Virus record (IMG/VR): IMGVR_UViG_2529292919_000018
Length of the DNA: 44,108 bases
Direction: 5' to 3' (one strand)
DNA from: a virus
Taxonomy: Duplodnaviria > Heunggongvirae > Uroviricota > Caudoviricetes
Shown piece by piece: positions 1 to 19,355 of this stretch (positions are counted from its first letter, which is position 1; each line of letters begins with the position of its first letter). The position numbers and the translations under genes are program-made. A model generated the notes under the pieces. The model worked only from the letters and a program-made list of their open reading frames with translations. It made no database searches and was not told where the DNA came from.

Positions 1-1119
1 TCAAATAACCAACTTAACCCATTCCTGACCTCGAGTATCGTTATAGCGATCGGTGGTTGCCTGGACTTTATGTCCTAGTAATGTTTTTGTATCAATACCC
101 TGTGCACGGTACAGCCGTTCTGATAGAGAGCGTTGTTCATGAAATGTTGGCGGAGTTTTTCCTGCTGGTGGAATTATCCCAGCCAGATCCCGTGCTTTGG
201 CAAAGTAGTCGCTCAGGTTGTCTTTACTCATCGGCTTCGGTTGTTTCTGGTGCCGACTATGGATTAGATATGGACTTAATATTCTGTCTCGGCACCCATC
301 AATAACTTCTTTTAACGTTATCCCAATGGCATCACAGCGTAGTGTAAGCGGTAACGCCAGACGCATTCCGGTTTTTCCCTGGGTGATATGCAAGTGTTCG
401 TTCCACACATCTGAAAAACGCATGTGGCAAATGTCATCACGGCGCTGACCAGTAACAATCGCAAGAAGCATTGCGTTACGGATAAAGTGTTTTTCAGGCG
501 TTGCATTGTAAATTTTTTGCCAGTCTTCCATGGTGAGCCTGGCTCTGGTTACTTTAGGGATCGGTTTACGGGTAGCCTCCGGAGGATTCCATCCAGGAGG
601 AACTTCCCCTGCATGCTGTGCTTCTTTATAAATATCAACCCATAATCCACGATTTACTCTCGCTGTGCTGACCATGTCTTTATCCAGCCACTCATCCAGT
701 ATTAATGCAAAGTCTCTTACTTCCAGTTCTTTCAATGGGTGGTTTCCCAGACGGGAAACCAGGTATGCAGCCATTCGGGTTTTTTCTTTGTGAGTTGTAG
801 CTGCAATATCTCCATTTTTCAGTCGCGTGTCCTGTATTTTCAGATATCGATCAACCCATGCCTTTAATCTGATACCCCGACGTTTTGTTGCTGACGGACT
901 TTCATCAATTTTGCGCATGAAATATTCAGCTTCTGCTGCAGCTATTCGCTGATTGGCTGTGGAAGCGATTTTTTCTGCCTTACCTTTGTCTGTTCCGAGT
1001 CCGTGAAATTTTCCAGTCACAGGATTTTTATACTGGTAGTAAACTCTGCCAGTTCTGCGATCAAACTTTTCGTAAAGACCGGCTACGTCAGTGCTGTTTT
1101 TTCGTGGCCTCGGTGACAT
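1..1119 (-). CDS. int: Tyrosine-type site-specific integrase (lambda Int family)
   Basis: 372-aa ORF ending exactly at window start; C-terminal catalytic region with R...HxxR...Y pattern (TFHEQRSLSERLY, LLGHK, TTDRYNDTR); N-terminal arm-binding-like region; overlapped by xis-like gene. Confidence 0.9.
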   Translation of the reverse strand: MSPRPRKNSTDVAGLYEKFDRRTGRVYYQYKNPVTGKFHGLGTDKGKAEKIASTANQRIAAAEAEYFMRKIDESPSATKRRGIRLKAWVDRYLKIQDTRLKNGDIAATTHKEKTRMAAYLVSRLGNHPLKELEVRDFALILDEWLDKDMVSTARVNRGLWVDIYKEAQHAGEVPPGWNPPEATRKPIPKVTRARLTMEDWQKIYNATPEKHFIRNAMLLAIVTGQRRDDICHMRFSDVWNEHLHITQGKTGMRLALPLTLRCDAIGITLKEVIDGCRDRILSPYLIHSRHQKQPKPMSKDNLSDYFAKARDLAGIIPPAGKTPPTFHEQRSLSERLYRAQGIDTKTLLGHKVQATTDRYNDTRGQEWVKLVI

Positions 1120-1357
1120 GAGTTAAAATCTCCTTCAGTGCATCATCATCGCCAGTATGAATTTCCGGCGCAATTCCCGTTTCACCAGGCCCAACAAATA
1201 CTGCTCGGCGATCTATCAGCCAACGCCCACGAATTTTTTGTGGTCTTGGAACGATGTATCCTAGTTTTCCGTATTTCACCAGGGTAGTGTTTGTTATTGG
1301 GAGACTGAACCGTTTTGGTTTCCACTCGTCGAGCGTTATCAGGTACTGTTCGCTCAT
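1088..1357 (-). CDS. Putative excisionase / small DNA-binding protein
   Basis: 89-aa ORF from ATG at 1357 with GGAG RBS; 3' end overlaps the int start, the classic xis-int arrangement. No motif recognised; call is positional. Confidence 0.45.
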   Translation of the reverse strand: MSEQYLITLDEWKPKRFSLPITNTTLVKYGKLGYIVPRPQKIRGRWLIDRRAVFVGPGETGIAPEIHTGDDDALKEILTHVTEATKKQH

Positions 1358-1418
1358 GGCTATCACTCCGGAACGCGCCAGTTGCAGAATATCAACGACA
1401 ACTGGCGACGGTTGAACA

Positions 1419-3890
1419 TTAAAAATCAGCCTGATTCGGGATCAGTTTTTGCCAGATAGCTGAAACGTATTTTGCCTGGTGACGAGCGTCATCAAGTGCA
1501 TTATGGCGCTCACCTTCGAATGGAATAGCCGTTCTGGCATCGAAGTCTATGGCTTTCCCCAGCTCAACGATTGTGCGTACATCGCGATCGTTGTAGTAAC
1601 GCCACGGGCAGGGGATCCCCTGCCGTTCGTATGAACGGCGCAAAATCGTGTTGTCGAAGTTGGCTCCATTTCCCCAAACCTGAACAAAAAATTCACCGGA
1701 GTTTTCGTCGATAAATTCCCGCAATTGTAACAGTGCATCATCTAACGGGATTTCATCGGTCATAATGGCAGATTGCGCTTCGCGTGATTGCTTAAGCCAC
1801 CATTTAATGGTGTCCCGATCAATGACTCCGCCAGCAGTTTCCAGATCGATAGTCTTACTAAATTCCGGTCCCATATCTCCGGTTTGCGGATCGAAAAATA
1901 TTGCACCTATTGAGATGATCGGGGCATCAGGATTTTTTCCCATGGTTTCAAGGTCGATCATTAGATGGTCACACGTCCTGCTGGTGGATGTGATTTCGTG
2001 ATGACCGTTCACCTTAATTGAGTGATCTGCCGTCTCGCCAGTCTCATTATCGCTATTGTGATGCTGATTGCCGCCAGTGTTCTCCTTGTGTGGATGCTCA
2101 GCGCCTTCCATTTCCTCCGGATCATCTTCCTGAACTTCAACCTGATACTCTTCACCGAATGTTTCCTGGTATGTTGCGTCGCCCATCACCGCACCACAAT
2201 CAGGGCAGTTGCCGCCGCCGGTCTGACCGCAGGCGGTGCAGACTTTTTCCACTTCCTGTTGCACTACTGGTTCAGGTAGTTTCGTTTCTGGCTCGTTTTG
2301 TTGCGTATTTGGGCTGTTTTGTTCCGCTTTCTGGTCGTTCTGTTCCGTTTCTTGCTGGTTCTGGTTCACAGAATCGCGGGTTTCAATCCCCTTCACCCAT
2401 TTCGGATCATTCGGATCGCTAACCCCTGCAACAAATTCACCACGTGATACTGCAAGCAGTTCATCGGCGTCAGGCTGGCTGATATTGGCTGCCTGCATAA
2501 TTTTGTTTACTTCGTCAGCGGTAACTTTTACCGGCCCTGGTTGTGCGGTCGTGTCAGATGCACCAGTATTTTGTTGTGAACCTGAGTATGTACCGTTTTT
2601 GCGGGCGAAATATTCTTCTTTCGTGATTTCAGTAGCCCCTGTAGCCAGTGCCTTATCCAGACCAGAAAGTTTGTTTGCGCGACCGTATTTTTCGCTATCC
2701 TTGTCGGTGAAGAGGAAGTAGAACGGCCCTTCACGCTCTACAGATGGTTCGACTTCCACTTTGCATTCGGTTTTTTCGTTGTCCGGAATTGCCGTTTCCA
2801 CTGCATCAGTTTCTGGTACTGGCGACGAGAGAGTATCAGTTGCGCTCTGATTTCTTCCTTCATCTTCAAACACGCCCTTTGTAGTCAGGTATTCAGTAAT
2901 GTATTTGTTCAGTGCCACAGGGTCTTTGTGAATGTCGATCGGACGTTCACGGACAAGGCCAAAAATAGTCTGGCGGTCGTAGCGAAGGGCATCAGGCTGT
3001 TTGCGCATTGATGCCGAGATACGCTTCCAGTCTTCGCGGTCGTTGTCGATAACTTCTTTTTTTGCCCAGCGATGGATGCTGCCGTCAATGTTTCCGGCAT
3101 CCACATCACCAGGCCAGAGAGCGTAGGCCAGTTCGTCATCCAGTGTTTTCCATGTCTGCTTGTATTCGCGATGAGTGGCAGCAATGACCGGGCTGATTTT
3201 TCCTGTTGAATTTTCAGTGTTCTGTTGATTGGCTCTGGCGCGGGCGAGATCAACAACAGACGTGTATTTTCCGGTTTCCTTGCGTTCACCTTCGCGACGT
3301 TTTTTCCAGATGCGCATCTCTGCCTGAATTTCGGGCCATTTGGCACCAGGCTTACATTTATGCTTAACCCACCCGATGGCATGCAGCTTAAGCTCCGGAT
3401 ACATGGCGTTAACTTCTGGCATTTTCATCAACGCTTCAACGATATGTCCGTCGAATGTTGCCATGTCTTCCTGCAACAATTCCTGTGCGCTAATCACCAT
3501 ATCAACGGTGATGTTTTCACATGTGTCGAACTTAACCATGACAGCGTTCTGTACTTCAGGGGCCAGCTTGTCAAAAGTGACGTTCATCGGATCGGATTCA
3601 GTCTCAACCGGGACAAAAGAAGCAGAATCCTCATCCCAGCGGTTTTCCTGCATATATTCAGCATCCCATGAATCGAGGGCAGGGCGGGGTATGCCAGGTT
3701 TATCCTCGCAGACAATAAATTTATAAGCGCAGTCCTGAGCAGCCGGATAATGTTCCAGGAATTGCCAGTGAAATTTTGCTCGAGCACGGCGTTCGTCGCC
3801 AGCTTCAATGGCTGTGGCTACAGCCACAGCGCCTTCTTCCCTTGTTGCCAGTTCGTCAGGAATAGCGGCGCAAATAAAGACTTTACTCAT
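1419..3890 (-). CDS. Large multidomain protein with C-terminal DEDDh (DnaQ-like) 3'-5' exonuclease domain, zinc ribbon and acidic low-complexity linker (YdfE-like?)
   Basis: Start set to ATG at 3890 (MSKVF, GAGG RBS) rather than track start 3926. C-terminus has Exo I IDLETMG, Exo II WGNGANFD, Exo III HNALDDA. Central Q/E/T-rich segment and CTACGQTGGGNCPDCGA Cys4 ribbon. Confidence 0.75.
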   Translation of the reverse strand: MSKVFICAAIPDELATREEGAVAVATAIEAGDERRARAKFHWQFLEHYPAAQDCAYKFIVCEDKPGIPRPALDSWDAEYMQENRWDEDSASFVPVETESDPMNVTFDKLAPEVQNAVMVKFDTCENITVDMVISAQELLQEDMATFDGHIVEALMKMPEVNAMYPELKLHAIGWVKHKCKPGAKWPEIQAEMRIWKKRREGERKETGKYTSVVDLARARANQQNTENSTGKISPVIAATHREYKQTWKTLDDELAYALWPGDVDAGNIDGSIHRWAKKEVIDNDREDWKRISASMRKQPDALRYDRQTIFGLVRERPIDIHKDPVALNKYITEYLTTKGVFEDEGRNQSATDTLSSPVPETDAVETAIPDNEKTECKVEVEPSVEREGPFYFLFTDKDSEKYGRANKLSGLDKALATGATEITKEEYFARKNGTYSGSQQNTGASDTTAQPGPVKVTADEVNKIMQAANISQPDADELLAVSRGEFVAGVSDPNDPKWVKGIETRDSVNQNQQETEQNDQKAEQNSPNTQQNEPETKLPEPVVQQEVEKVCTACGQTGGGNCPDCGAVMGDATYQETFGEEYQVEVQEDDPEEMEGAEHPHKENTGGNQHHNSDNETGETADHSIKVNGHHEITSTSRTCDHLMIDLETMGKNPDAPIISIGAIFFDPQTGDMGPEFSKTIDLETAGGVIDRDTIKWWLKQSREAQSAIMTDEIPLDDALLQLREFIDENSGEFFVQVWGNGANFDNTILRRSYERQGIPCPWRYYNDRDVRTIVELGKAIDFDARTAIPFEGERHNALDDARHQAKYVSAIWQKLIPNQADF

Positions 3891-3982
3891 TTGTTTTAAC
3901 CTCATGACAGATTTAAGGATGAACAAATCCCTGCCATTGCTGGCATATAAGAATGAAACCGGATATTTATTACGGAACTGTT

Positions 3983-4174
3983 TTAAAGACCTGCCGGGAT
4001 TTCGATATTATCCTGGTGAATAACTTTATCGACCGGGTAACAGTTACCGGGAATTTTCTGTTCGGTTGCTGCAGTCATACACTACTGCATTGTCCTGTGA
4101 ACACTGACTGCAATATCAACTGGCTCTCCGGAAACAAGAAAAACTGTCAGAACAAGCACAAATGCTGAATTCAT
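3983..4174 (-). pseudogene. ydfD: ydfD-like small lysis-protein gene interrupted by in-frame amber codon (TAG on the minus strand at 4082-4084)
   Basis: ATG at 4174 overlaps dicB stop (ATGA). Frame reads MNSAFVLVLTVFLVSGEPVDIAVSVHRTMQ, then TAG, then 32 more sense codons (CMTAATEQKIPGNCYPVDKVIHQDNIEIPAGL) to TAA. Total 63 codons, matching my recollection of K-12 YdfD length. Confidence 0.45.
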
Positions 4175-4359
4175 TGTGCACATCCTTTTGGCATCAGACG
4201 TAAACGAGCCAGCATTGAAACAATGCATATTTTATTTAATAGCTCCCGTTCTTGTTTTCTCTTGTTAATGGCATCTTCAGTAAATACTGGGTTACTGATA
4301 GTGACACCAATTTCAAAACAACCTTCAGACGTATTAACGTTTGGTAATAACGTTTTCAT
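4171..4359 (-). CDS. dicB: Cell-division inhibitor DicB
   Basis: 62-aa frame MKTLLPNVNTSEGCFEIGVTISNPVFTEDAINKRKQERELLNKICIVSMLARLRLMPKGCAQ (internal Met of track ORF 4171..4464); matches recalled K-12 DicB; downstream of DicF on same strand. Confidence 0.8.
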   Translation of the reverse strand: MKTLLPNVNTSEGCFEIGVTISNPVFTEDAINKRKQERELLNKICIVSMLARLRLMPKGCAQ

Positions 4360-4528
4360 TATCGCGTCCTCAACAATGAATTTTGTGATGCAGTGCCTGG
4401 TGCCTCCAGGTGACGTTAACCAGTTAACAATTAACGCCGGATACAGAGAATCCACCCATAACACTGTTTTTGGTTTTAACTGTTCCGCGTGCGCTCAGCC
4501 GCATTCACCACATCACAAAATTCACTTT

Positions 4529-4586
4529 AAAAAGGGCGGCAGAGCAGTCACGGAGTAAAACTGATACCGCCAAACGTCACCAGAAA
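4529..4586 (-). ncRNA. dicF: DicF small regulatory RNA (ftsZ-targeting) with intrinsic terminator
   Basis: Minus strand reads TTTCTGGTGACGTTTGGCGGTATCAGTTTTACTCCGTGACTGCTCTGCCGCCCTTTTT: GC stem (GGCGG...CTGCCGCC) plus U-run, matching my memory of DicF; sits between ydfC-like gene and dicB. Ends +/- a few nt. Confidence 0.75.
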
Positions 4587-4927
4587 ATTGATAACAGAGG
4601 GCGTTGCAGCGGGGTTGTCACTTAAGCGTATGGTCAACCTGACAACCCGGTGTCCTCAACGGGGGAAGGAATAACCCCGCCATACTTACCGCCGCGCCAT
4701 TTCGCGGATTGCCACAACCGGAAGCGCACGGTCGACGAAAATTTAACGACAGGCTATCTATGAACCAGCTACCTCGCCGTGCGCTTTCGCGTTATGGTCT
4801 GACTTTTCAGGGAAATATCCTTTCAGTAAACTGTCAGTGCCGGATGCTCACCCGTGTCCGGCGCACGCACTCCACCTCATCCGTGGAGAACTCCTTAATT
4901 ACCAACCTTAGCTTCGTTGGTTAGCTA

Positions 4928-5146
4928 TTAACGCGGGTATGTAATCATTCTGGCAATGCTTAATGTCGCTGCTTTTTCCAGATTAGTGATATCCTGCTCC
5001 AGAGCGGACAGATTTTCAGCCTGCTTAGCCCTGGCTTCATTGGTCCATTTCAGATCCTGCGCTGCATTAATTTTCTGGCGCATCCACTCATAAAGTTCAT
5101 CATCGGTATAGTCTGGCGCGATGATGACGGGTTCTCGTTTCTGCAT
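4928..5146 (-). CDS. ydfC: YdfC-like small protein (dicB operon)
   Basis: 72-aa ORF, ATG at 5146 with GAGGA RBS; size and position match ydfC of the Qin dicB operon (recollection). Confidence 0.55.
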   Translation of the reverse strand: MQKREPVIIAPDYTDDELYEWMRQKINAAQDLKWTNEARAKQAENLSALEQDITNLEKAATLSIARMITYPR

Positions 5147-5175
5147 ACTGATTCCTCGCGGTGCTGTTTCGCTTA

Positions 5176-5304
5176 TCAGCCGTTAGATTTTGCCGAACTG
5201 GAAAGTGCCTGTTTAAATTCGCTGAAGCTGAGAGCTTCTTCGCCTTCGGCAAGACCTTCGAAGTATTCTTCGTAAGCCTTTTCCATGATTGTGTCGAAAT
5301 CCAT
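5176..5304 (-). CDS. ydfB: YdfB-like small acidic protein (42 aa)
   Basis: Not in the >=60-aa track. Minus-strand ATG at 5304 after AGGTGGGTGA RBS gives MDFDTIMEKAYEEYFEGLAEGEEALSFSEFKQALSSSAKSNG, stop at 5176-5178. Confidence 0.5.
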   Translation of the reverse strand: MDFDTIMEKAYEEYFEGLAEGEEALSFSEFKQALSSSAKSNG

Positions 5305-5305
5305 A

Positions 5306-5461
5306 TCACCCACCTGAATTTCTTTCCAGCCAGCGACGCGCTCCAGATTCGGTTTTAAACGTTTTGCTTTTGGTATACGTCATCGCGGTGAACGTACCGT
5401 CCTGGTTGGGGAACACGCCACATACCAGAGATTCGCTGTTGCCAAGATCGATAGTATCCAT
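5306..5461 (-). CDS. ydfA: YdfA-like small protein (51 aa)
   Basis: Internal Met of track ORF 5306..5554: MDTIDLGNSESLVCGVFPNQDGTFTAMTYTKSKTFKTESGARRWLERNSGG; first gene of the leftward operon below the repressor. Confidence 0.45.
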   Translation of the reverse strand: MDTIDLGNSESLVCGVFPNQDGTFTAMTYTKSKTFKTESGARRWLERNSGG

Positions 5462-5652
5462 GTTGACCTCATTTCCCCTTAACGCCGGGGTAGCGGAACT
5501 GTTTGCTGAGAACACCGTGCGGTGTCTTGATGGATCGTAATTTAGTTTTCTCATGAATATTGATCAAGTGCTTTTGATGATAAAACTCAATATTTAATGC
5601 AAAATAAAGCCAATACATTGAAATGTAAGGCTTTAAAATTTGTGAAGGGGGG

Positions 5653-6060
5653 TTATTGATGTTTGTTACGTTTGCGAGCTTCTAGTAGCTCGGTGAATAG
5701 GCGATTAAAATTCTCAACGCGGGCACGGAGTTCGCTGATTTGTGCTTGCTGCTCTGATTTTGGAAGTGCGCGATACAATCGCAACATCTCCAACTCATCT
5801 TCCGATAAGTCTAAGGCGCTGTTGAGTGCAACTGGTGGATCTGGTGTTTTATCCTCGTCACCAAACAGTATCCAAGTTGGTGAACATTGCAATACCTCAG
5901 CCAGGCGATGCAAATTTTGCCCGCGCGGGGCTGTATGGTCGCTTTCCCATAGTGAAATTGATGAGCCAGATACGCCAGCAGCTTTGCTTAAATCGTTTTG
6001 ACTTAAACCAACCTGTTTGCGTCTTTCTCTAATTCGTTGACCTAAAGTTTTCTCGTTCAT
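5653..6060 (-). CDS. dicA: XRE/cI-type HTH repressor (DicA-like immunity repressor)
   Basis: 135 aa; N-terminal HTH (GQRIRERRKQVGLSQNDLSKAAGVSGSSISLWE) and LQCSPTWILFGDEDK segment recalled from DicA; divergent from a Cro-like gene. Confidence 0.85.
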   Translation of the reverse strand: MNEKTLGQRIRERRKQVGLSQNDLSKAAGVSGSSISLWESDHTAPRGQNLHRLAEVLQCSPTWILFGDEDKTPDPPVALNSALDLSEDELEMLRLYRALPKSEQQAQISELRARVENFNRLFTELLEARKRNKHQ

Positions 6061-6137
6061 ATTTAGATATCTTAATAATCCTTGACTTGAGATTCCTTGA
6101 GTGATTACTATTGAGAAAACTCAACTTTGGAGGGGTG
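6061..6137. promoter_or_regulatory. Divergent promoter/operator region between dicA-like and dicC-like genes
   Basis: 77-bp AT-rich spacer with repeated TTGA(C/G) half-site-like motifs (CTTGACTTGAGATTCCTTGAGTGATTACTATTGAG); GGAGGGG RBS for the rightward gene. Confidence 0.4.
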
Positions 6138-6365
6138 ATGTTTAAATCAGACGTAATTAATTTTTATGGGACGAAAGCCAAAGTAGCGAAAGCTGCTGGT
6201 GTTGATCCATCTGCTGTTTCTCAATGGGGGGAACTGGTTCCTGAAGGTCGCGCGATGCGCCTGCAAGAGGCATCCGGCGGGGAACTTCAGTACGACCCCA
6301 AAGTTTATGACGAATATCGTAAGGCAAAGCGGGCGGGGCGGTTGAACAATGAAAATCACCCCTGA
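6138..6365 (+). CDS. dicC: Cro-like small regulator (DicC-like)
   Basis: Track ORF starts at TTG 6111; ATG at 6138 follows GGAGGGG RBS, giving 75 aa (MFKSDVINFYGTKAKVAKAAGVDPSAVSQWG...); divergent from repressor. Confidence 0.7.
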   Translation: MFKSDVINFYGTKAKVAKAAGVDPSAVSQWGELVPEGRAMRLQEASGGELQYDPKVYDEYRKAKRAGRLNNENHP

Positions 6366-6900
6366 ACAGGTTTGTGAGGCTCTGGATGCCTGGGTATGCC
6401 GACCAGGAATGACACAGGAGCAGGCGACGATATTAATCACGGAAGCATTCTGGGCTCTGAAAGAACGCCCGAACATCGATGTTCAACGCGTCACGTTTAA
6501 TGATGGCGAGGTTGATCAACGGGCGCTGTGCGTTAACCGGGTGAAGATATTCGAACGCTGGAAAGCTATCGACACCAGGGATAAGCGGAAAAAATTCACG
6601 GCGCTGATTCCGGCAATTATGGAGGCTATCCGAATTAGTGATTTCAGGCTGTATCGTGAGATCAGTGATGGAAAAAGCATTACGTACATGATCGCCGGAT
6701 TAAACAAAGAATATGGCGATGTGGTGGAGTCCGGGCTGCTTTTTGCGGATCCATCTGTTGTGGAACGTGAGACTGACGAGCTTATAGAAAAAGCTATTGC
6801 TTTCAAGCATGCGTATCGTCAGCAATATCAATATTACTTTGCAGATAAACAAATGTCTGCCAGGGGTTCGTATGAGTATCGATGCACTACGATGGGCTAA
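6349..6900 (+). CDS. YdaT-like protein (CII-like position; YdaT toxin-domain family?)
   Basis: 183 aa directly after cro-like gene (start overlaps its end); segment DKRKKFTALIPAIMEAI resembles the KxxKLIPAIL core I recall from Rac YdaT. Assignment tentative. Confidence 0.45.
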   Translation: MKITPEQVCEALDAWVCRPGMTQEQATILITEAFWALKERPNIDVQRVTFNDGEVDQRALCVNRVKIFERWKAIDTRDKRKKFTALIPAIMEAIRISDFRLYREISDGKSITYMIAGLNKEYGDVVESGLLFADPSVVERETDELIEKAIAFKHAYRQQYQYYFADKQMSARGSYEYRCTTMG

Positions 6901-7912
6901 AAAGGTGAAAACCGGCAGTTCATCCAGTAAGTCTGTATTGACCTGGCTTGCTGATATGTGCGGTGCCGATTTGTGTGCATACCCGTCTGTATCTGCACTG
7001 GCAGAAGTAACGGAACTGAACAAAAAGACTGTGCAGGACAGCTTACGACACCTGATGGAGATTGGGTTAATTGTTGATACCGGTGAGAGAAAAGGCAGAA
7101 CAAAGCAAATTGTGGTGTACCGACTTATCGGTGTAGAAGAAAGTGTTGCCGAGCCTGAATACACCCAAAAACGGGAGTCTTTAAAGGTGGGTAAAATCGG
7201 TGCTGTTAATAAAAACAGTACCGAAAATGGTTATGTTTCAGCACAAAACAGACCCAAAAACGGAACTCTTAGCTGCATGGAAAATAACCAAAGACACCCA
7301 AATTTTCCATCAAAGACACCCAAAAACGGATCACGGAACCCAAAGGAACCCAAAGAGCTAAACCCCACACATAACGCACGCGAGAGTGCTCCGACCAGTG
7401 AGCAGAAAGTTTTGTCGTTACAGGCTGCACCTCCTGTATTCCTGGATGGCCTGAGCGAACCCATCGAAAAATTTCCGATGACCGATAGCTGGTATCCGTC
7501 ACGGGATTTTCGACGACGGGCTGCGTTGTGGGGGATGGCTTTGCCGGAGACAGAATTCACACCTGCTGAACTTGCCGCCTTCCGGGGCTACTGGGCTGCT
7601 GAGGGGAAAGTGTTTACGCAGATTCAGTGGGAGCAGAAATTCGCCCGTCACGTAAATCACGTCAGGGCGCAGGTTAAACCAGTCAGCAAGGGGGTAAACC
7701 ATGCAGCAGCACCAGGTGACACCGCATCACGGGCAGTTCAGGAAATTCGGGCAGCACGTGAGCAGTGGGAACGTGAAAACGGATTTATCAGCGACGGAAA
7801 CGGCCTGGAAGCTGTGGGAACTCATGGGGGAGGTTTATTCGAACCGCTGGACCCAGAAGAACGGGGCCGCACCTTCGAAGCTCTGGATTGCACAGATTGG
7901 TGCGATGACTGA
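6872..7912 (+). CDS. Replication initiator (O-like, N-terminal winged-helix DNA-binding domain)
   Basis: ATG at 6872 (MSIDALRWAKKVKTG...); wHTH-like N-terminus; position before a P-like gene. 3' end overlaps the P frame, so the true C-terminus is uncertain. Confidence 0.6.
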   Translation: MSIDALRWAKKVKTGSSSSKSVLTWLADMCGADLCAYPSVSALAEVTELNKKTVQDSLRHLMEIGLIVDTGERKGRTKQIVVYRLIGVEESVAEPEYTQKRESLKVGKIGAVNKNSTENGYVSAQNRPKNGTLSCMENNQRHPNFPSKTPKNGSRNPKEPKELNPTHNARESAPTSEQKVLSLQAAPPVFLDGLSEPIEKFPMTDSWYPSRDFRRRAALWGMALPETEFTPAELAAFRGYWAAEGKVFTQIQWEQKFARHVNHVRAQVKPVSKGVNHAAAPGDTASRAVQEIRAAREQWERENGFISDGNGLEAVGTHGGGLFEPLDPEERGRTFEALDCTDWCDD

Positions 7913-8366
7913 GCAGAAAATCCGACAGGTCTGCCGCCAGTGCATGGACCGCTGCCGGGCGGGTGAAACATGGCCTCCGGACCTGGCTGAGTTTGTGGCG
8001 CTGATTTCTGAAAGCGGAGCCAATCCATTCGGTCTGACGGTGGATGCCGTGATGGAGGAGTACCGTCGCTGGCGCAACGAGTCCTGGCGATACGACGGGA
8101 GCGATAAATACCCGTGGTCTCAGCCTGTGCTGTATCACATTTGCCTCGAGATGCGTTCAAAGGGGATTGAGCGGCAGATGACCGAAGGGGAGTTAAAACG
8201 GCTTGCAGAACGGCAGCTGACGAAATGGGCAAAGCATGTTAGTAACGGCCTGAGTGTTCCGCCAGTCCGGCGACAACTGGCGGCACCCAAACGCCCGTCG
8301 GGGCCAACGCCAATTGAGTTGCTGAAACAGGAATATGAACGCCGGAAAGCGGCTGGGCTTGTCTGA
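7701..8366 (+). CDS. Replication protein P-like (helicase loader)
   Basis: Alignable by eye to lambda P: TMEQ..R, PxxxxFVA, YPW, TxxELxR, AxxELxHMTxRIN-like spacing. Strong SD AAGGGGG before ATG 7701; alternative starts 7827 or 7905. Confidence 0.7.
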   Translation: MQQHQVTPHHGQFRKFGQHVSSGNVKTDLSATETAWKLWELMGEVYSNRWTQKNGAAPSKLWIAQIGAMTEQKIRQVCRQCMDRCRAGETWPPDLAEFVALISESGANPFGLTVDAVMEEYRRWRNESWRYDGSDKYPWSQPVLYHICLEMRSKGIERQMTEGELKRLAERQLTKWAKHVSNGLSVPPVRRQLAAPKRPSGPTPIELLKQEYERRKAAGLV

Positions 8367-8398
8367 GTTGAGAAGTAATTTTTACCGGGAGGAAATTT

Positions 8399-16805: not shown

Positions 16806-17294
16806 ATGATATATCCGGAAATTACAGGCAAAAGCGGCGAGCATTTACGTCTAAAAACGCTGGAAGCCGTCTGGATCCAGGGGAAATTACGGATGTGGGG
16901 GCGTTGGTCGTATATAGGTGGTGGCAAACCAGGAAATATGTTCAATCAGTTGCTGGCATCCAAAAAACTGACAAAAACCGCGGTCAATGAAGCCCTGCGT
17001 AGAATCAGGGAGTCAGGGATTGATAAACCAGAGCTGGAAGCATTCTTGCGAGAGATGATCGCTGGCAGACAGAAGAGCTGGTTGTCTCACTGTACTGATG
17101 CAGAGGCGTTACGCATTGATGGGGTGATAAGTAAAGCGCTTGCACGTTATCCTGGATTGATTGATATCCTGCGGCAAAGGTACGAAGGGCGGGGGATGAG
17201 TAAACGCAAAATGGCTGAATTGTTGAATGAGGTTCACCCTGAGTGGTGCTATGCAATGCCGCAATCGTATAGATATGTGGCTGAGAATAGCTGA
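16806..17294 (+). CDS. Putative late-gene antiterminator (Q-like) by position
   Basis: ATG 16806 (GTG 16794 overlaps rusA stop); located between rusA and a terminator/late region. No zinc-finger seen, so family uncertain. Confidence 0.4.
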   Translation: MIYPEITGKSGEHLRLKTLEAVWIQGKLRMWGRWSYIGGGKPGNMFNQLLASKKLTKTAVNEALRRIRESGIDKPELEAFLREMIAGRQKSWLSHCTDAEALRIDGVISKALARYPGLIDILRQRYEGRGMSKRKMAELLNEVHPEWCYAMPQSYRYVAENS

Positions 17295-17510
17295 GTTTAT
17301 TCTGTATCCACTGATGCGAGATGCATTTTCTTTTACTGACGCTTAGAATCTGGAGGGCGTTTGTTGTTGCACGAAGAGGATTTTTGGCTGGTAGTAAGGT
17401 TTGTGCAGTTTTAGAAAAAAAGCTTGTATTTTTAGCCATAAACTGTTTCAATCCAGCTACGCTTCGCAAAGCTGTACCGCGAGGCGAATAGCAGACATGG
17501 ACACCTGAAA

Positions 17511-17536
17511 GAACCCGCTTTATGCGGGTTTTTTTA
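17511..17536 (+). terminator. Rho-independent terminator (tR'-like) downstream of Q-like gene
   Basis: ACCCGC-TTTAT-GCGGGT hairpin followed by TTTTTTT. Confidence 0.6.
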
Positions 17537-17658
17537 TGCCTGAAAAACGGCACAGAACATTAAACGCGCTGGTAGTTGTGAATACTGGTCTTTCAGCTTG
17601 CTGGCTTTTTCGACAAGAGGTATTGGTATGTCACGTTAACCGGAAAAGGGAAAAAAGC

Positions 17659-17856
17659 ATGCTAAAACAGCAGGATATGACCGAAACCGCCAGAGTGGTG
17701 TTTAATGAATTAAGCGTCACCGAACCGGCGACCGTCGGGGAAATTGCGCAGAATACTTACCTTTCACGCGAACGCTGCCAGTTAATACTGACTCAGCTTG
17801 TTATGGCGGGTCTGGCAGATTATCAGTTCGGTTGTTACAGACGCCTTCCTCAGTGA
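17659..17856 (+). CDS. Hypothetical small protein (65 aa)
   Basis: ATG 17659 downstream of terminator; MLKQQDMTETARVVFNELSVTEPATVGEIAQ...; no family recognised. Confidence 0.4.
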   Translation: MLKQQDMTETARVVFNELSVTEPATVGEIAQNTYLSRERCQLILTQLVMAGLADYQFGCYRRLPQ

Positions 17857-18006
17857 AGGCTTTTTAATTTGTGGTAATGGGCGGCTGGTGGGTGTTAGCG
17901 GTACCTGCCAGCCATCTGCTCATGCGTTGGGGTCACAAGCAAACCTCAGGCCCATCTGCTTTGCGCAAAAGCGGTATGAGCCTATCAGAGAAGTGCTTAT
18001 TGATCT

Positions 18007-19056
18007 ATGATTAATACTGTAAAAATATCCAGTTGTGAGTTAATCAACGCTGATTGTCTGGAATTTATCCAGACCTTACCGGAAAATTCTGTCGATCTGA
18101 TAGTCACAGACCCGCCATACTTTAAAGTGAAGCCCGAGGGCTGGGATAACCAGTGGAAGGGCGACGATGATTACCTGAAATGGCTGGACCAGTGTCTGGC
18201 GCAGTTCTGGCGGGTACTGAAGCCTGCCGGAAGTCTTTACCTGTTCTGTGGTCATCGCCTGGCATCTGACACCGAAATCATGATGCGTGAGCGCTTTAAT
18301 GTGCTGAACCACATTATCTGGGCGAAGCCGTCCGGACGCTGGAACGGGTGCAATAAGGAAAGTCTGCGGGCGTATTTTCCGGCAACAGAGCGCATTCTGT
18401 TTGCAGAACATTATCAGGGACCGTATCGCCCGAAAGATGATGGCTATGTGGTACAGGGGCGCGGGCTAAAACAGCACGTCATGGCCCCGCTGATTTCTTA
18501 CTTTCGTGATGCGCGTAAATCACTGGGAATAACGTCAAAACAGATAGCGGAAGCCACCGGAAAGAAAAACATGGCTTCGCACTGGTTTGGTACCAGTCAG
18601 TGGCAGTTACCGAACGAGGGTGATTACAACAAATTGCAGGCGTTGTTTGCGCGTGTTGCGGCAGAAAAACATCAGCGCGGGGAACTGGAAAAGCCACACC
18701 ACCAGCTGGTCAGCACATACAGTGAGCTGAACCGGCAGTATACGGAACTGCTGAGTGAATATAAAAATTTGCGGCGGTATTTCGGTGTGACGGCGCAGGT
18801 TCCGTACACCGATGTCTGGACGCATAAACCGGTGCAGTACTATCCAGGGAAACATCCGTGCGAAAAACCGGCAGAAATGCTGCAGCAGATAATCAACGCG
18901 AGCAGTCGTCCGGGAGACCTGGTTGCAGATTTTTTTATGGGTTCAGGTTCAACGGTAAAAGCGGCGATGGCACTGGGGCGTCGTGCGATTGGTGTTGAGC
19001 TGGAGACCGGACGTTTTGAACAGACAGTCAGGGAAGTTCAGGATTTAATCGTTTGA
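18007..19056 (+). CDS. DNA methyltransferase (N6-adenine/N4-cytosine, beta-class; orphan)
   Basis: Motif IV DLIVTDPPYF near N-terminus and AdoMet motif I FFMGSGSTVKAA near C-terminus; no adjacent restriction endonuclease gene. Confidence 0.85.
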   Translation: MINTVKISSCELINADCLEFIQTLPENSVDLIVTDPPYFKVKPEGWDNQWKGDDDYLKWLDQCLAQFWRVLKPAGSLYLFCGHRLASDTEIMMRERFNVLNHIIWAKPSGRWNGCNKESLRAYFPATERILFAEHYQGPYRPKDDGYVVQGRGLKQHVMAPLISYFRDARKSLGITSKQIAEATGKKNMASHWFGTSQWQLPNEGDYNKLQALFARVAAEKHQRGELEKPHHQLVSTYSELNRQYTELLSEYKNLRRYFGVTAQVPYTDVWTHKPVQYYPGKHPCEKPAEMLQQIINASSRPGDLVADFFMGSGSTVKAAMALGRRAIGVELETGRFEQTVREVQDLIV

Positions 19057-19105
19057 AACGGATGAGATTGCAGAATTAATTACGCACCATTATTATTCTG
19101 CTCCC

Positions 19106-19181
19106 GGCCCTTTAGCTCAGTGGTGAGAGCGAGCGACTCATAATCGCCAGGTCGCTGGTTCAAATCCAGCAAGGGCCACCA
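19106..19181 (+). tRNA. tRNA with CAU anticodon (Met or lysidine-type Ile2; ileZ-like)
   Basis: Acceptor stem GGCCCTT/AAGGGCC, D-arm TAGCTCAGTGGT-AGAGC, anticodon loop CTCATAA, T-arm GGTTCAAATCC, 3' CCA. Coordinates +/- 2. Confidence 0.8.
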
Positions 19182-19188
19182 TCACATA

Positions 19189-19265
19189 CCGCCATTAGCT
19201 CATCAGGATAGAGCGCCAGCCTTCGAAGCTGGTTGCGCGGGGTTCGAGTCCTCGATGGCGGTCCA
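19189..19265 (+). tRNA. tRNA-Arg (anticodon UCG; argN-like)
   Basis: Acceptor CCGCCAT/ATGGCGG, anticodon stem GCCAGC/GCTGGT with loop CTTCGAA, T-loop TTCGAGT, 3' CCA. Confidence 0.8.
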
Positions 19266-19278
19266 TTATCTGTACCCT

Positions 19279-19355
19279 GCGTTGTTAGCTCAGCCGGACA
19301 GAGCAATTGCCTTCTAAGCAATCGGTCACTGGTTCGAATCCAGTACAACGCGCCA
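19279..19355 (+). tRNA. tRNA-Arg (anticodon UCU; argO-like)
   Basis: Acceptor GCGTTGT/ACAACGC, anticodon stem ATTGC/GCAAT with loop CTTCTAA, T-arm GGTTCGAATCC, 3' CCA. Confidence 0.8.

Follow-up and report, generated by a model that had tools for sequence, protein, structure and literature searches.

A dicBF operon in a prophage contig that combines a potC-type lambdoid arm with a phiP27-type late arm

The dicBF operon and its immunity control

The DNA analyzed here, called the window throughout, is the whole 44,108-nucleotide stretch of IMG/VR virus record IMGVR_UViG_2529292919_000018 (Caudoviricetes), and our subject is the dicBF operon near its left end, which codes for DicF, a small RNA (sRNA), and the peptide DicB. 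DicF and DicB are textbook prophage-encoded division inhibitors. As judged by gene order and homology, the dicF-dicB pair belongs to an early-left (PL-like) operon of the canonical dicBF type, carried by a lambdoid prophage, with the minus-strand order DicA-like repressor, dicBp, ydfA-ydfB-ydfC-dicF-dicB-ydfD(amber)-exonuclease-xis-int (Table 1). The element around it is made of two parts. Positions 1 to about 17.7 kb belong to a potC-integrated lambdoid prophage of the enteropathogenic Escherichia coli 1 (EPEC1) lineage, and from about 17.85 kb onwards there follows a late arm of the phiP27 type, with its end at the Qin/ydfJ attachment site.

The Rfam DicF model (RF00039, gathering score 48) matches positions 4534–4585 of the minus strand over its full length (model positions 1–52 of 52; 76.7 bits, E=2.5e-15), and the 53-nt dicF gene of E. 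coli K-12 (b1574) is identical to positions 4534–4586 at 53 of 53 nucleotides. Folding predicts a 3′ stem-loop of -15.9 kcal/mol, directly followed by UUUUU. This hairpin was not flagged by a simple terminator scan that accepts only loops of up to 8 nt and uninterrupted stems, because its loop has 9 nt and its stem is interrupted. The miss is a limit of the scan and no argument against the DicF hairpin, which both the fold and the Rfam structure show. Located between ydfC and dicB, as expected for the dicB operon, dicF is followed after 175 nt by the start of dicB. The DicB product is matched from residue 1 to 62 of 62 by Pfam PF05358 (E=1.9e-40, 136.8 bits, cut-off 27), has a match to PHROG 1251 (E=1.8e-39), and is identical to K-12 DicB at 62/62 residues. 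Between the ydfC stop and the dicB start, 559 of 568 nt are identical to K-12, so that the precursor context of the mapped RNase E and RNase III processing is conserved too. Judging from these alignments, the likeness of DicF and DicB to their K-12 counterparts is no product of chance. A first-pass annotation, made from the letters of the window, had recognized DicF with its terminator hairpin on the minus strand, a 62-residue DicB frame behind it, and in both the FtsZ/Min-directed division-inhibition module known from Qin. All of this is borne out: the two alignments that it had proposed as a check gave a DicF score above the gathering score and a DicB identical to that of K-12, and the operon has the K-12 order with a DicA/DicC-like immunity region upstream. 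Of the limits proposed for DicF (4529–4586), the end at 4586 holds, and 4529 is a few bases too far on the 3′ side, where the gene ends at 4534.

The distal part of the operon differs from that of K-12. The N-terminal open reading frame of the ydfD pseudogene matches DUF1482, and the same gene is annotated as an ‘internal stop’ pseudogene in strain E2348/69. The exonuclease that follows combines YdfE-type N- and C-terminal domains with a 3′-5′ exoribonuclease-like domain. At the proximal end, dicBp was placed by alignment with K-12; a strict-rule sigma-70 scan gave no minus-strand candidate for it. Over this region 131 of 198 positions are identical to K-12, the final ~95 nt (leader) being nearly identical and the operator part diverged. 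The operator regions themselves are 43/85 identical, with half-sites of the type TTGAG..CTCAA versus TTAGC..GCTAA. The repressor, which had no Peptidase_S24 match in the Pfam search, likewise differs from DicA more in its helix-turn-helix (HTH) half (24/57, 42%) than in its C-terminal half (50/80, 62%). Because of the divergence of the HTH half and the different operator half-sites, its immunity specificity probably differs from that of K-12 DicA.

With a short HTH repressor devoid of an S24 domain, a divergent Cro-like gene and an antirepressor, the features of a DicA/Rem-type (Gifsy-like) immunity module are all present. Rem is the antirepressor of DicA-type repressors (PMC10448788). It is conserved here, while its presumed target repressor is conserved mainly in the C-terminal half. 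This would fit a Rem that acts on the conserved C-terminal part, in which case several immunity types could be served by a single antirepressor. For a possible SOS control of rem, a search for LexA boxes (CTGT-N8-ACAG) returned two matches versus 0.5 expected, a number reached by 8 of 100 shuffled sequences and thus not significant; one of the two falls at the boundary between the insertion sequence (IS) and hok described below.

According to the mechanism published for K-12, dicBp is kept repressed by DicA and is freed by Rem or by a bistable switch between DicA and DicC. DicF, a processing product of the polycistronic RNA, represses ftsZ among other mRNAs, and DicB brings MinC to the septum and also blocks ManYZ. 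Because the effectors are identical, we infer that this mechanism should apply to the window module. The operon would then be silent as long as the short DicA-type repressor holds the operators. Once the repressor is displaced by Rem, or by a spontaneous switch of the DicC/Cro type, one long transcript would be made, from which DicF could be freed by RNase E and RNase III, unless it ends at its own hairpin. Together with Hfq, DicF would pair with ftsZ and other mRNAs. DicB would bind MinC and bring it to the ZipA/FtsZ ring, with the result that division stops, and would also block ManYZ-dependent DNA injection by other phages. The dicBF pair may in this respect be the functional counterpart of lambda kil in the PL operon. 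Identity with K-12 is what suggests the Hfq-dependent pairing with ftsZ and the RNase E/RNase III release of DicF, on which experiments have been reported (PMC5069750, PMC10448788). It likewise suggests the binding of DicB to MinC, its targeting to ZipA and the inhibition of ManYZ.

Table 1. Features of the window that bear on the dicBF operon and on the composite element
Feature	Position	Strand	Basis
potC-type integrase, 372 aa	1–1119	-	potC flank in relatives and in source contig
Excisionase	1088–1357	-	int-xis region 1–1357
Exonuclease, 823 aa, distal early-left gene	1419–3890	-	Pfam Rv2179c-like E=6.7e-68; YdfE_N and YdfE_C
ydfD (lysis protein) pseudogene	3983–4174	-	amber stop at codon 31 relative to K-12 YdfD
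dicB, 62-aa cell-division inhibitor	4171–4359	-	Pfam PF05358, K-12 alignment, PHROG 1251
U-tract after dicF hairpin	4529–4533	-	UUUUU
dicF sRNA gene, 53 nt, with 3′ stem-loop	4534–4586	-	Rfam, K-12 alignment, fold
Untranslated ydfC-dicF spacer, 5′ part of DicF precursor	4587–4927	-	within the 559/568 stretch
ydfC	4928–5146	-	70/72 aa identical to K-12; PHROG 1744
ydfB	5176–5304	-	42/42 aa identical to K-12
ydfA (DUF1391)	5306–5461	-	Pfam PF07151 E=2e-27; 47/51 aa identical to K-12
dicBp (PL-like) promoter/operator and operon leader	5462–5652	-	K-12 alignment
DicA-like short repressor, 135 aa	5653–6060	-	Pfam HTH_3 E=1.2e-16; 75/138 identical to DicA
DicC/Cro-like regulator, divergent	6138–6365	+	Pfam P22_Cro E=1.4e-17; 54/77 identical to DicC
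rem, antirepressor of DicA-type repressors	14775–15026	+	80/83 aa identical to K-12 Rem; Pfam Rem
Q-like late antiterminator (DUF1133), frameshifted	16806–17294	+	Pfam, PHROG, homologue comparison
Join of two prophage lineages	17657–17849	.	193 bp without informative differences; SNP pattern
phiP27-type lysis, HK97-type head and Mu-type contractile-tail modules	20194–42429	+	comparison with AST19 and phiP27
Tail-tube gene, -1 frameshift	31541–31896	+	T6 versus T7 at 31564
Qin/ydfJ-type attR region	42673–42843	+	170/171 identical to E300082 attR
N-terminally truncated ydfJ, 427 aa	42825–44108	+	K-12 ydfJ also 1284 nt and abutting Qin

Two prophage lineages in one element

The window derives from contig AIEY01000035.1 of the draft assembly GCA_000249115.2, to which it is 100% identical over the 21 kb compared. 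To the left of the integrase, this contig continues with potC, potD, ymfA, ycfZ, cobB, nagK and lolEDC, and the same integrase is found 166 bp from potC in E2348/69, in enterotoxigenic E. coli (ETEC) H10407 and in the avian strain CM2010-0578/1. Window positions 1–19355 are 99.7% identical to the potC prophage of E2348/69. To the right of the tail fibres, the contig carries ydfJ′, ydfI, ydfZ, rspR, ydfG and dcp, which is the neighbourhood of Qin in K-12, and the attR core at this end corresponds to the GAAATCCATAA repeat that flanks K-12 Qin. The potC-type att core (CACCTTCTTATTCA) was not found anywhere in the window, and the ydfJ-type integrase has no similarity to the window integrase. With a potC-type integrase and a potC left flank versus a ydfJ/Qin-type attR, the integrase and the right-hand att appear to belong to different systems, i.e. 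the ends are non-cognate. In the right flank of the source contig, ydfI beside ydfJ is interrupted by an IS21-family element (IstA/IstB; right-flank coordinates 14500–17889).

The change of lineage is visible in the pattern of single-nucleotide polymorphisms (SNPs). Compared with the sister potC prophages, the window has 5 differences in 6807–17849 and 31 in 17850–19277, while it shows 19 differences from the P27-type context up to 17656 and 3 after 17902. Seven sister assemblies, including a chromosome-scale one, share this left arm and its 162-residue Q-like protein and have a lambda-type late region behind it, as does E2348/69, where the genes between the prohead protease and gpK are lost and IS elements are present. 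Because the sisters and E2348/69 continue the left arm in this way, the window copy of dicBF would natively belong to a lambda-type prophage at potC. Only in this one contig does it lie next to a P27 module that looks complete, and both arms occur together in none of 5,426 complete E. coli genomes. Three phage tRNA genes lie on the plus strand at 19106–19355, with the anticodons CAT (annotated as Ile in relatives), TCG (Arg) and TCT (Arg). The middle one (19189–19265), unannotated in E2348/69, is the largest difference between the lineages, as 19 of the 31 differences from the sisters fall in 19205–19277.

The late regulator in the left arm is a Q-like antiterminator encoded between rusA and a methylase gene. 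A 2-nt deletion at 17256 shifts its frame after residue 150, giving a protein of 162 instead of 180 residues. Pfam DUF1133 matches the window protein only over 1–151 of 176 positions, Phage_antitermQ scores 27.9–28.6 bits (cut-off 26), and PHROG 753 (‘anti-termination protein Q-like’) matches residues 1–178 of the intact form with E=3e-78. The residues lost thus lie inside the conserved DUF1133 and PHROG 753 profiles. Since the identical truncated protein is encoded on 20 contigs from several assemblies, the frameshift is a real mutation of the lineage, and a sequencing error was rejected on the same ground. A scar of recombination or of assembly was rejected as well, as position 17256 is ~400 nt to the left of the switch and sisters with the other late arm share the deletion.

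The late arm, from ~19.4 to 42.6 kb, is 94.8% identical to phiP27 over 73% of its length. The head and tail proteins are mostly 91–100% identical to those of phiP27, with 81% for the tape-measure protein, a terminase of another type and diverged fibres. Compared with the module of AST19, 32 of the 33 late coding sequences are full length and stop-free, mostly at 98–100% identity. The head, tail and lysis modules that the first-pass annotation had called complete-looking are so at the level of reading frames, except for the tail-tube gene. Here a run of six T replaces the seven found in AST19, JNE25-005, E300082 and phiP27, which, counted from the native ATG, brings a stop at codon 19; the source contig calls an N-truncated product of 107 residues. 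Inactivated structural genes were what that annotation had itself named as speaking against its reading, and as sequenced one structural gene is frameshifted by this T6/T7 homopolymer. The change from T7 to T6 (31541–31575) also creates the zero-frame heptamer T_TTT_TTA, a classic -1 slippery motif. A -1 shift at this heptamer would restore the tube frame, and slippage of the ribosome or during transcription might conceivably rescue the gene at a low level.

Another peculiarity of the late arm is the Mu gp48/YmfQ-type baseplate wedge protein (38715–39674, plus strand), which has 319 residues versus 196 in phiP27 owing to a repetitive C-terminal extension of ~124 residues with motifs like EPLAINHTGVHFAVV. 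The protein of AST19, whose gene PGAP labels ‘incomplete’, has the same first 195 residues, and the 319-residue product is called in two independent read-set assemblies.

It is very probable that the window carries an authentic dicBF operon in the arm of a potC prophage joined to a P27-type arm and that, as sequenced, this does not form a coherent inducible phage, because the ends are non-cognate and both the Q-like and the tail-tube genes are frameshifted. Several points weigh against this interpretation. The left att is outside the window, so that the mismatch of the ends is deduced from the integrase type, the potC flank and the right-hand att. The loss of the final 30 residues of the Q-like protein is presumed to be inactivating. 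The T6 run in the tail-tube gene may be a sequencing error, since it lies in a homopolymer, as do most private single-base indels of the window (in runs of six or more), and since a sister draft shows further split genes. For the operon itself, the proposed mechanism leans on identity with the K-12 genes, and to assume control of the window repressor by Rem is to extrapolate, given that this repressor is only ~54% identical to DicA.

A two-gene Septu anti-phage defence system in the early-right region of the window (10994–12989, plus strand) consists of PtuA, a 457-residue AAA_15/21 ATPase (PADLOC E=2e-165), and PtuB, a 211-residue HNH nuclease (E=1.1e-83). The DUF5677 gene just upstream (9113–9955) has no PADLOC match. 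A hok/sok locus (13134–14559) is split by an IS481-family element: Rfam detects the sok/hok leader at 13134–13300 (112 bits), the hokD coding sequence is at 14404–14559, and homology to intact hokD loci ends at 13294 and resumes at 14389. The IS481-family transposase is itself split here by an indel in a T-run at 14072 and is intact (362 residues) in most sisters.

Origin of the join

In the orientation of the window, potC lies on the minus strand and ydfJ on the plus strand, while in the K-12-type order the minus strand carries both. K-12 ydfJ is located at 1.631 Mb, and potABCD, which we take to be near 1.18 Mb, would be ~450 kb away. Because of this distance and of the opposite orientation, the join must result either from a real inversion or from an assembly crossover through a near-repeat of 1.8 kb, and we rate the two about equally. 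The odds seem even that the contig is a draft-assembly chimera, the assembler having crossed the shared repeat from the potC prophage into a separate P27-type ydfJ prophage. The real dicBF copy would then sit in a lambda-type potC prophage, as in the sisters. The join is exactly in the 193-bp identical stretch of the near-repeat, where mis-joins classically occur; the arrangement is collinear in E2348/69 and in each of the seven sister assemblies; and the homopolymer-type indels and split genes seen in this assembly and in the sister draft are typical of low-accuracy drafts. Against an artefact of this kind stand the absence of other visible anomalies in a contig that extends beyond the element by 100 kb on the left and 31 kb on the right, and the common occurrence, as a matter of general knowledge, of prophage-mediated inversions in pathogenic E. 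coli. A real inversion of ~450 kb, by homologous recombination between oppositely oriented potC and P27-type ydfJ prophages, comes somewhat short of an even chance in our estimate. It would explain the strand geometry of potC and ydfJ, and a switch in a 193-bp identical segment of a stretch of ~1.8 kb at ~98% identity is also what a homologous crossover would leave. Moreover, the junction from tail fibre to ydfJ is reproduced in an independent read-set assembly. On the other hand, the join is seen in one draft contig only, the complete genomes hold no example of the two arms together, and the K-12 map positions suggest that such an inversion would be highly asymmetric about the terminus. Each of the two resulting hybrids would end up with non-cognate att sites and thus be locked in. 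That the two partners, at potC and at the ydfJ/Qin site, both carried dicBF and both became hybrids with non-cognate att sites in such an inversion is a tentative proposal, which we think possible but lean against. If true, the inversion would be a snapshot of dicBF lambdoid prophages that are trapped and starting the decay that produced Qin-like elements, in which the division-inhibition module stays perfectly conserved and the failure of Q, ydfD and structural genes sets in.

The first-pass annotation had taken the prophage to be otherwise complete, which would show dicBF in its native functional-phage setting. The gene content could well give this impression: 32 of the 33 late genes are full length and most are 91–100% identical to those of the inducible phiP27; the element has a lysis cassette, a terminase, replication genes, repressor/Cro, Rem, an integrase and an excisionase; and dicB with the same late module recurs in prophages at ydfJ and at yccA/tRNA-Ser. 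However, the element is composite. A potC-type integrase faces a ydfJ-type attR, the potC core is missing from the window, the seven sister assemblies show that this early region natively has a late arm of the lambda type, the Q-like gene is frameshifted across the lineage, and the tail-tube gene is frameshifted as sequenced. Even if it were true, earlier cases exist. We consider a single intact, inducible prophage highly improbable. A prophage that looks complete gene by gene can thus be a composite of two elements with mismatched ends, and draft contigs that run across prophage repeats need to be checked before claims of intactness are made.

Spread of dicBF and comparison with known systems

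The 1.8-kb dic region matches 4,759 of the 5,426 complete E. coli genomes, at a median of 2 places per genome and a maximum of 10. The spread of DicF and DicB over E. coli prophages has been described since 1994, according to the account that PMC5069750 gives of Faubladier & Bouché. In 2016, no DicB/DicF hits were reported in ~2,000 phage genomes, which was read as a hint of host domestication (PMC5069750). In 2023, the functional phage mEp460_ev081 was described as a carrier of dicB, dicF, dicAC and rem (PMC10448788). Tritos was spontaneously induced from LF82, isolated as a plaque and imaged as a siphovirus by transmission electron microscopy; its record (OV696610) annotates both DicF and DicB. 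In a collection of 50,697 phage records, a 601-nt dicB-dicF query is covered to at least 80% in 8, at 96–99.8% identity, and DicB is encoded in 20, of which 8 at 87% identity or more. The Rfam DicF model scores 72.5–76.7 bits in Tritos, mEp460_ev081, vB_EcoM-606R7 and PhiR42_1. The latter, from ECOR13, resembles a full-length relative of Qin, with flxA, relBE, hokD, rem, cspB/F/I, gnsB and a lambda terminase. Whether dicBF ever sits in a working phage is a question that the literature and the databases had thus already answered, with mEp460_ev081 and the deposited phages, so that the ‘functional-phage context of the dic operon’ proposed in the first-pass annotation is not new and the window adds very little in this respect. 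Its sequence call is right and its functional assignment is safe, but the significance claimed for them is not.

Several different late arms accompany the int-proximal block (exonuclease, ydfD, dicB, dicF, ydfCBA): P27-type myovirus late genes at ydfJ (E300082) and at yccA/tRNA-Ser (AST19, JNE25-005), those of the siphovirus Tritos, and the lambda-type late genes of PhiR42_1. The block is also found with at least four repressor types. From these combinations, the dic module appears to move independently of the late arm, which is ordinary lambdoid mosaicism. In the phage records LC567818–LC567841 (PPompW, Stx2a phages), dicF and the first ~37 codons of dicB are common to the E. coli sequence at 96% nucleotide identity and the C-terminal ~25 residues are replaced, giving a hybrid DicB variant of only 61% identity overall. 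PHROG 24763 likewise matches DicB residues 1–37 only. In MT713136.1 (Aeromonas phage AP1, a jumbo-phage record of 254 kb), an unannotated stretch of 247 nt close to the record end (249906–250152) is 98.8% identical to E. coli dicF-dicB and is probably a contamination or a chimeric assembly.

Among known systems, the Stx2e phage phiP27 (NC_003356) shares with the window the order of holins, M15 endolysin, HNH gene, portal, HK97-type head and Mu-type sheath, tube and baseplate genes. In contrast to the window, it has no dic genes annotated, carries stx2e, and has another terminase, other tail fibres, another integrase and another immunity region. The kil gene of lambda encodes an early-left FtsZ inhibitor that blocks host division upon derepression (PMC3961180). 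Like dicBF, it is a small early-left product that stops division when derepressed. The two have no sequence relationship, and dicBF acts with two effectors, an sRNA on ftsZ mRNA and a MinC-targeting peptide.

The phages mEp460_ev081 (LR597641), Tritos (OV696610), PhiR42_1 (PV340562) and vB_EcoM-606R7 (ON470580) have the same arrangement int-xis-exonuclease-ydfD-dicB-dicF-ydfCBA-repressor as the window, and their DicB is 87–100% identical to that of the window. Tritos and mEp460_ev081 were recovered as plaque-forming phages; PhiR42_1 and vB_EcoM-606R7 are known here as deposited phage genomes. Compared with these four, the window element has non-cognate ends and frameshifted Q-like and tail-tube genes. 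Its late arm is of the Mu-type contractile kind, whereas Tritos is a siphovirus and PhiR42_1 has a lambda-type terminase.

The closest reference remains K-12 Qin. The window repressor is ~54% and DicC ~70% identical to those of Qin, the operator half-sites are different, and ydfD carries an amber codon in the window. Downstream, the window operon runs into an intact exonuclease gene, xis and a potC-type integrase gene, whereas Qin has ydfE′, IS2 and intQ′, and the late genes are P27-type in the window versus lambda-type remnants in Qin. The right end of the window has the same ydfJ attachment site as Qin, and both elements combine a short DicA-type repressor lacking a protease domain with a Cro-like DicC and Rem. 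The dicBF genes follow the same order in both, with identical DicF, DicB and YdfB and with Rem identical at 80 of 83 residues.

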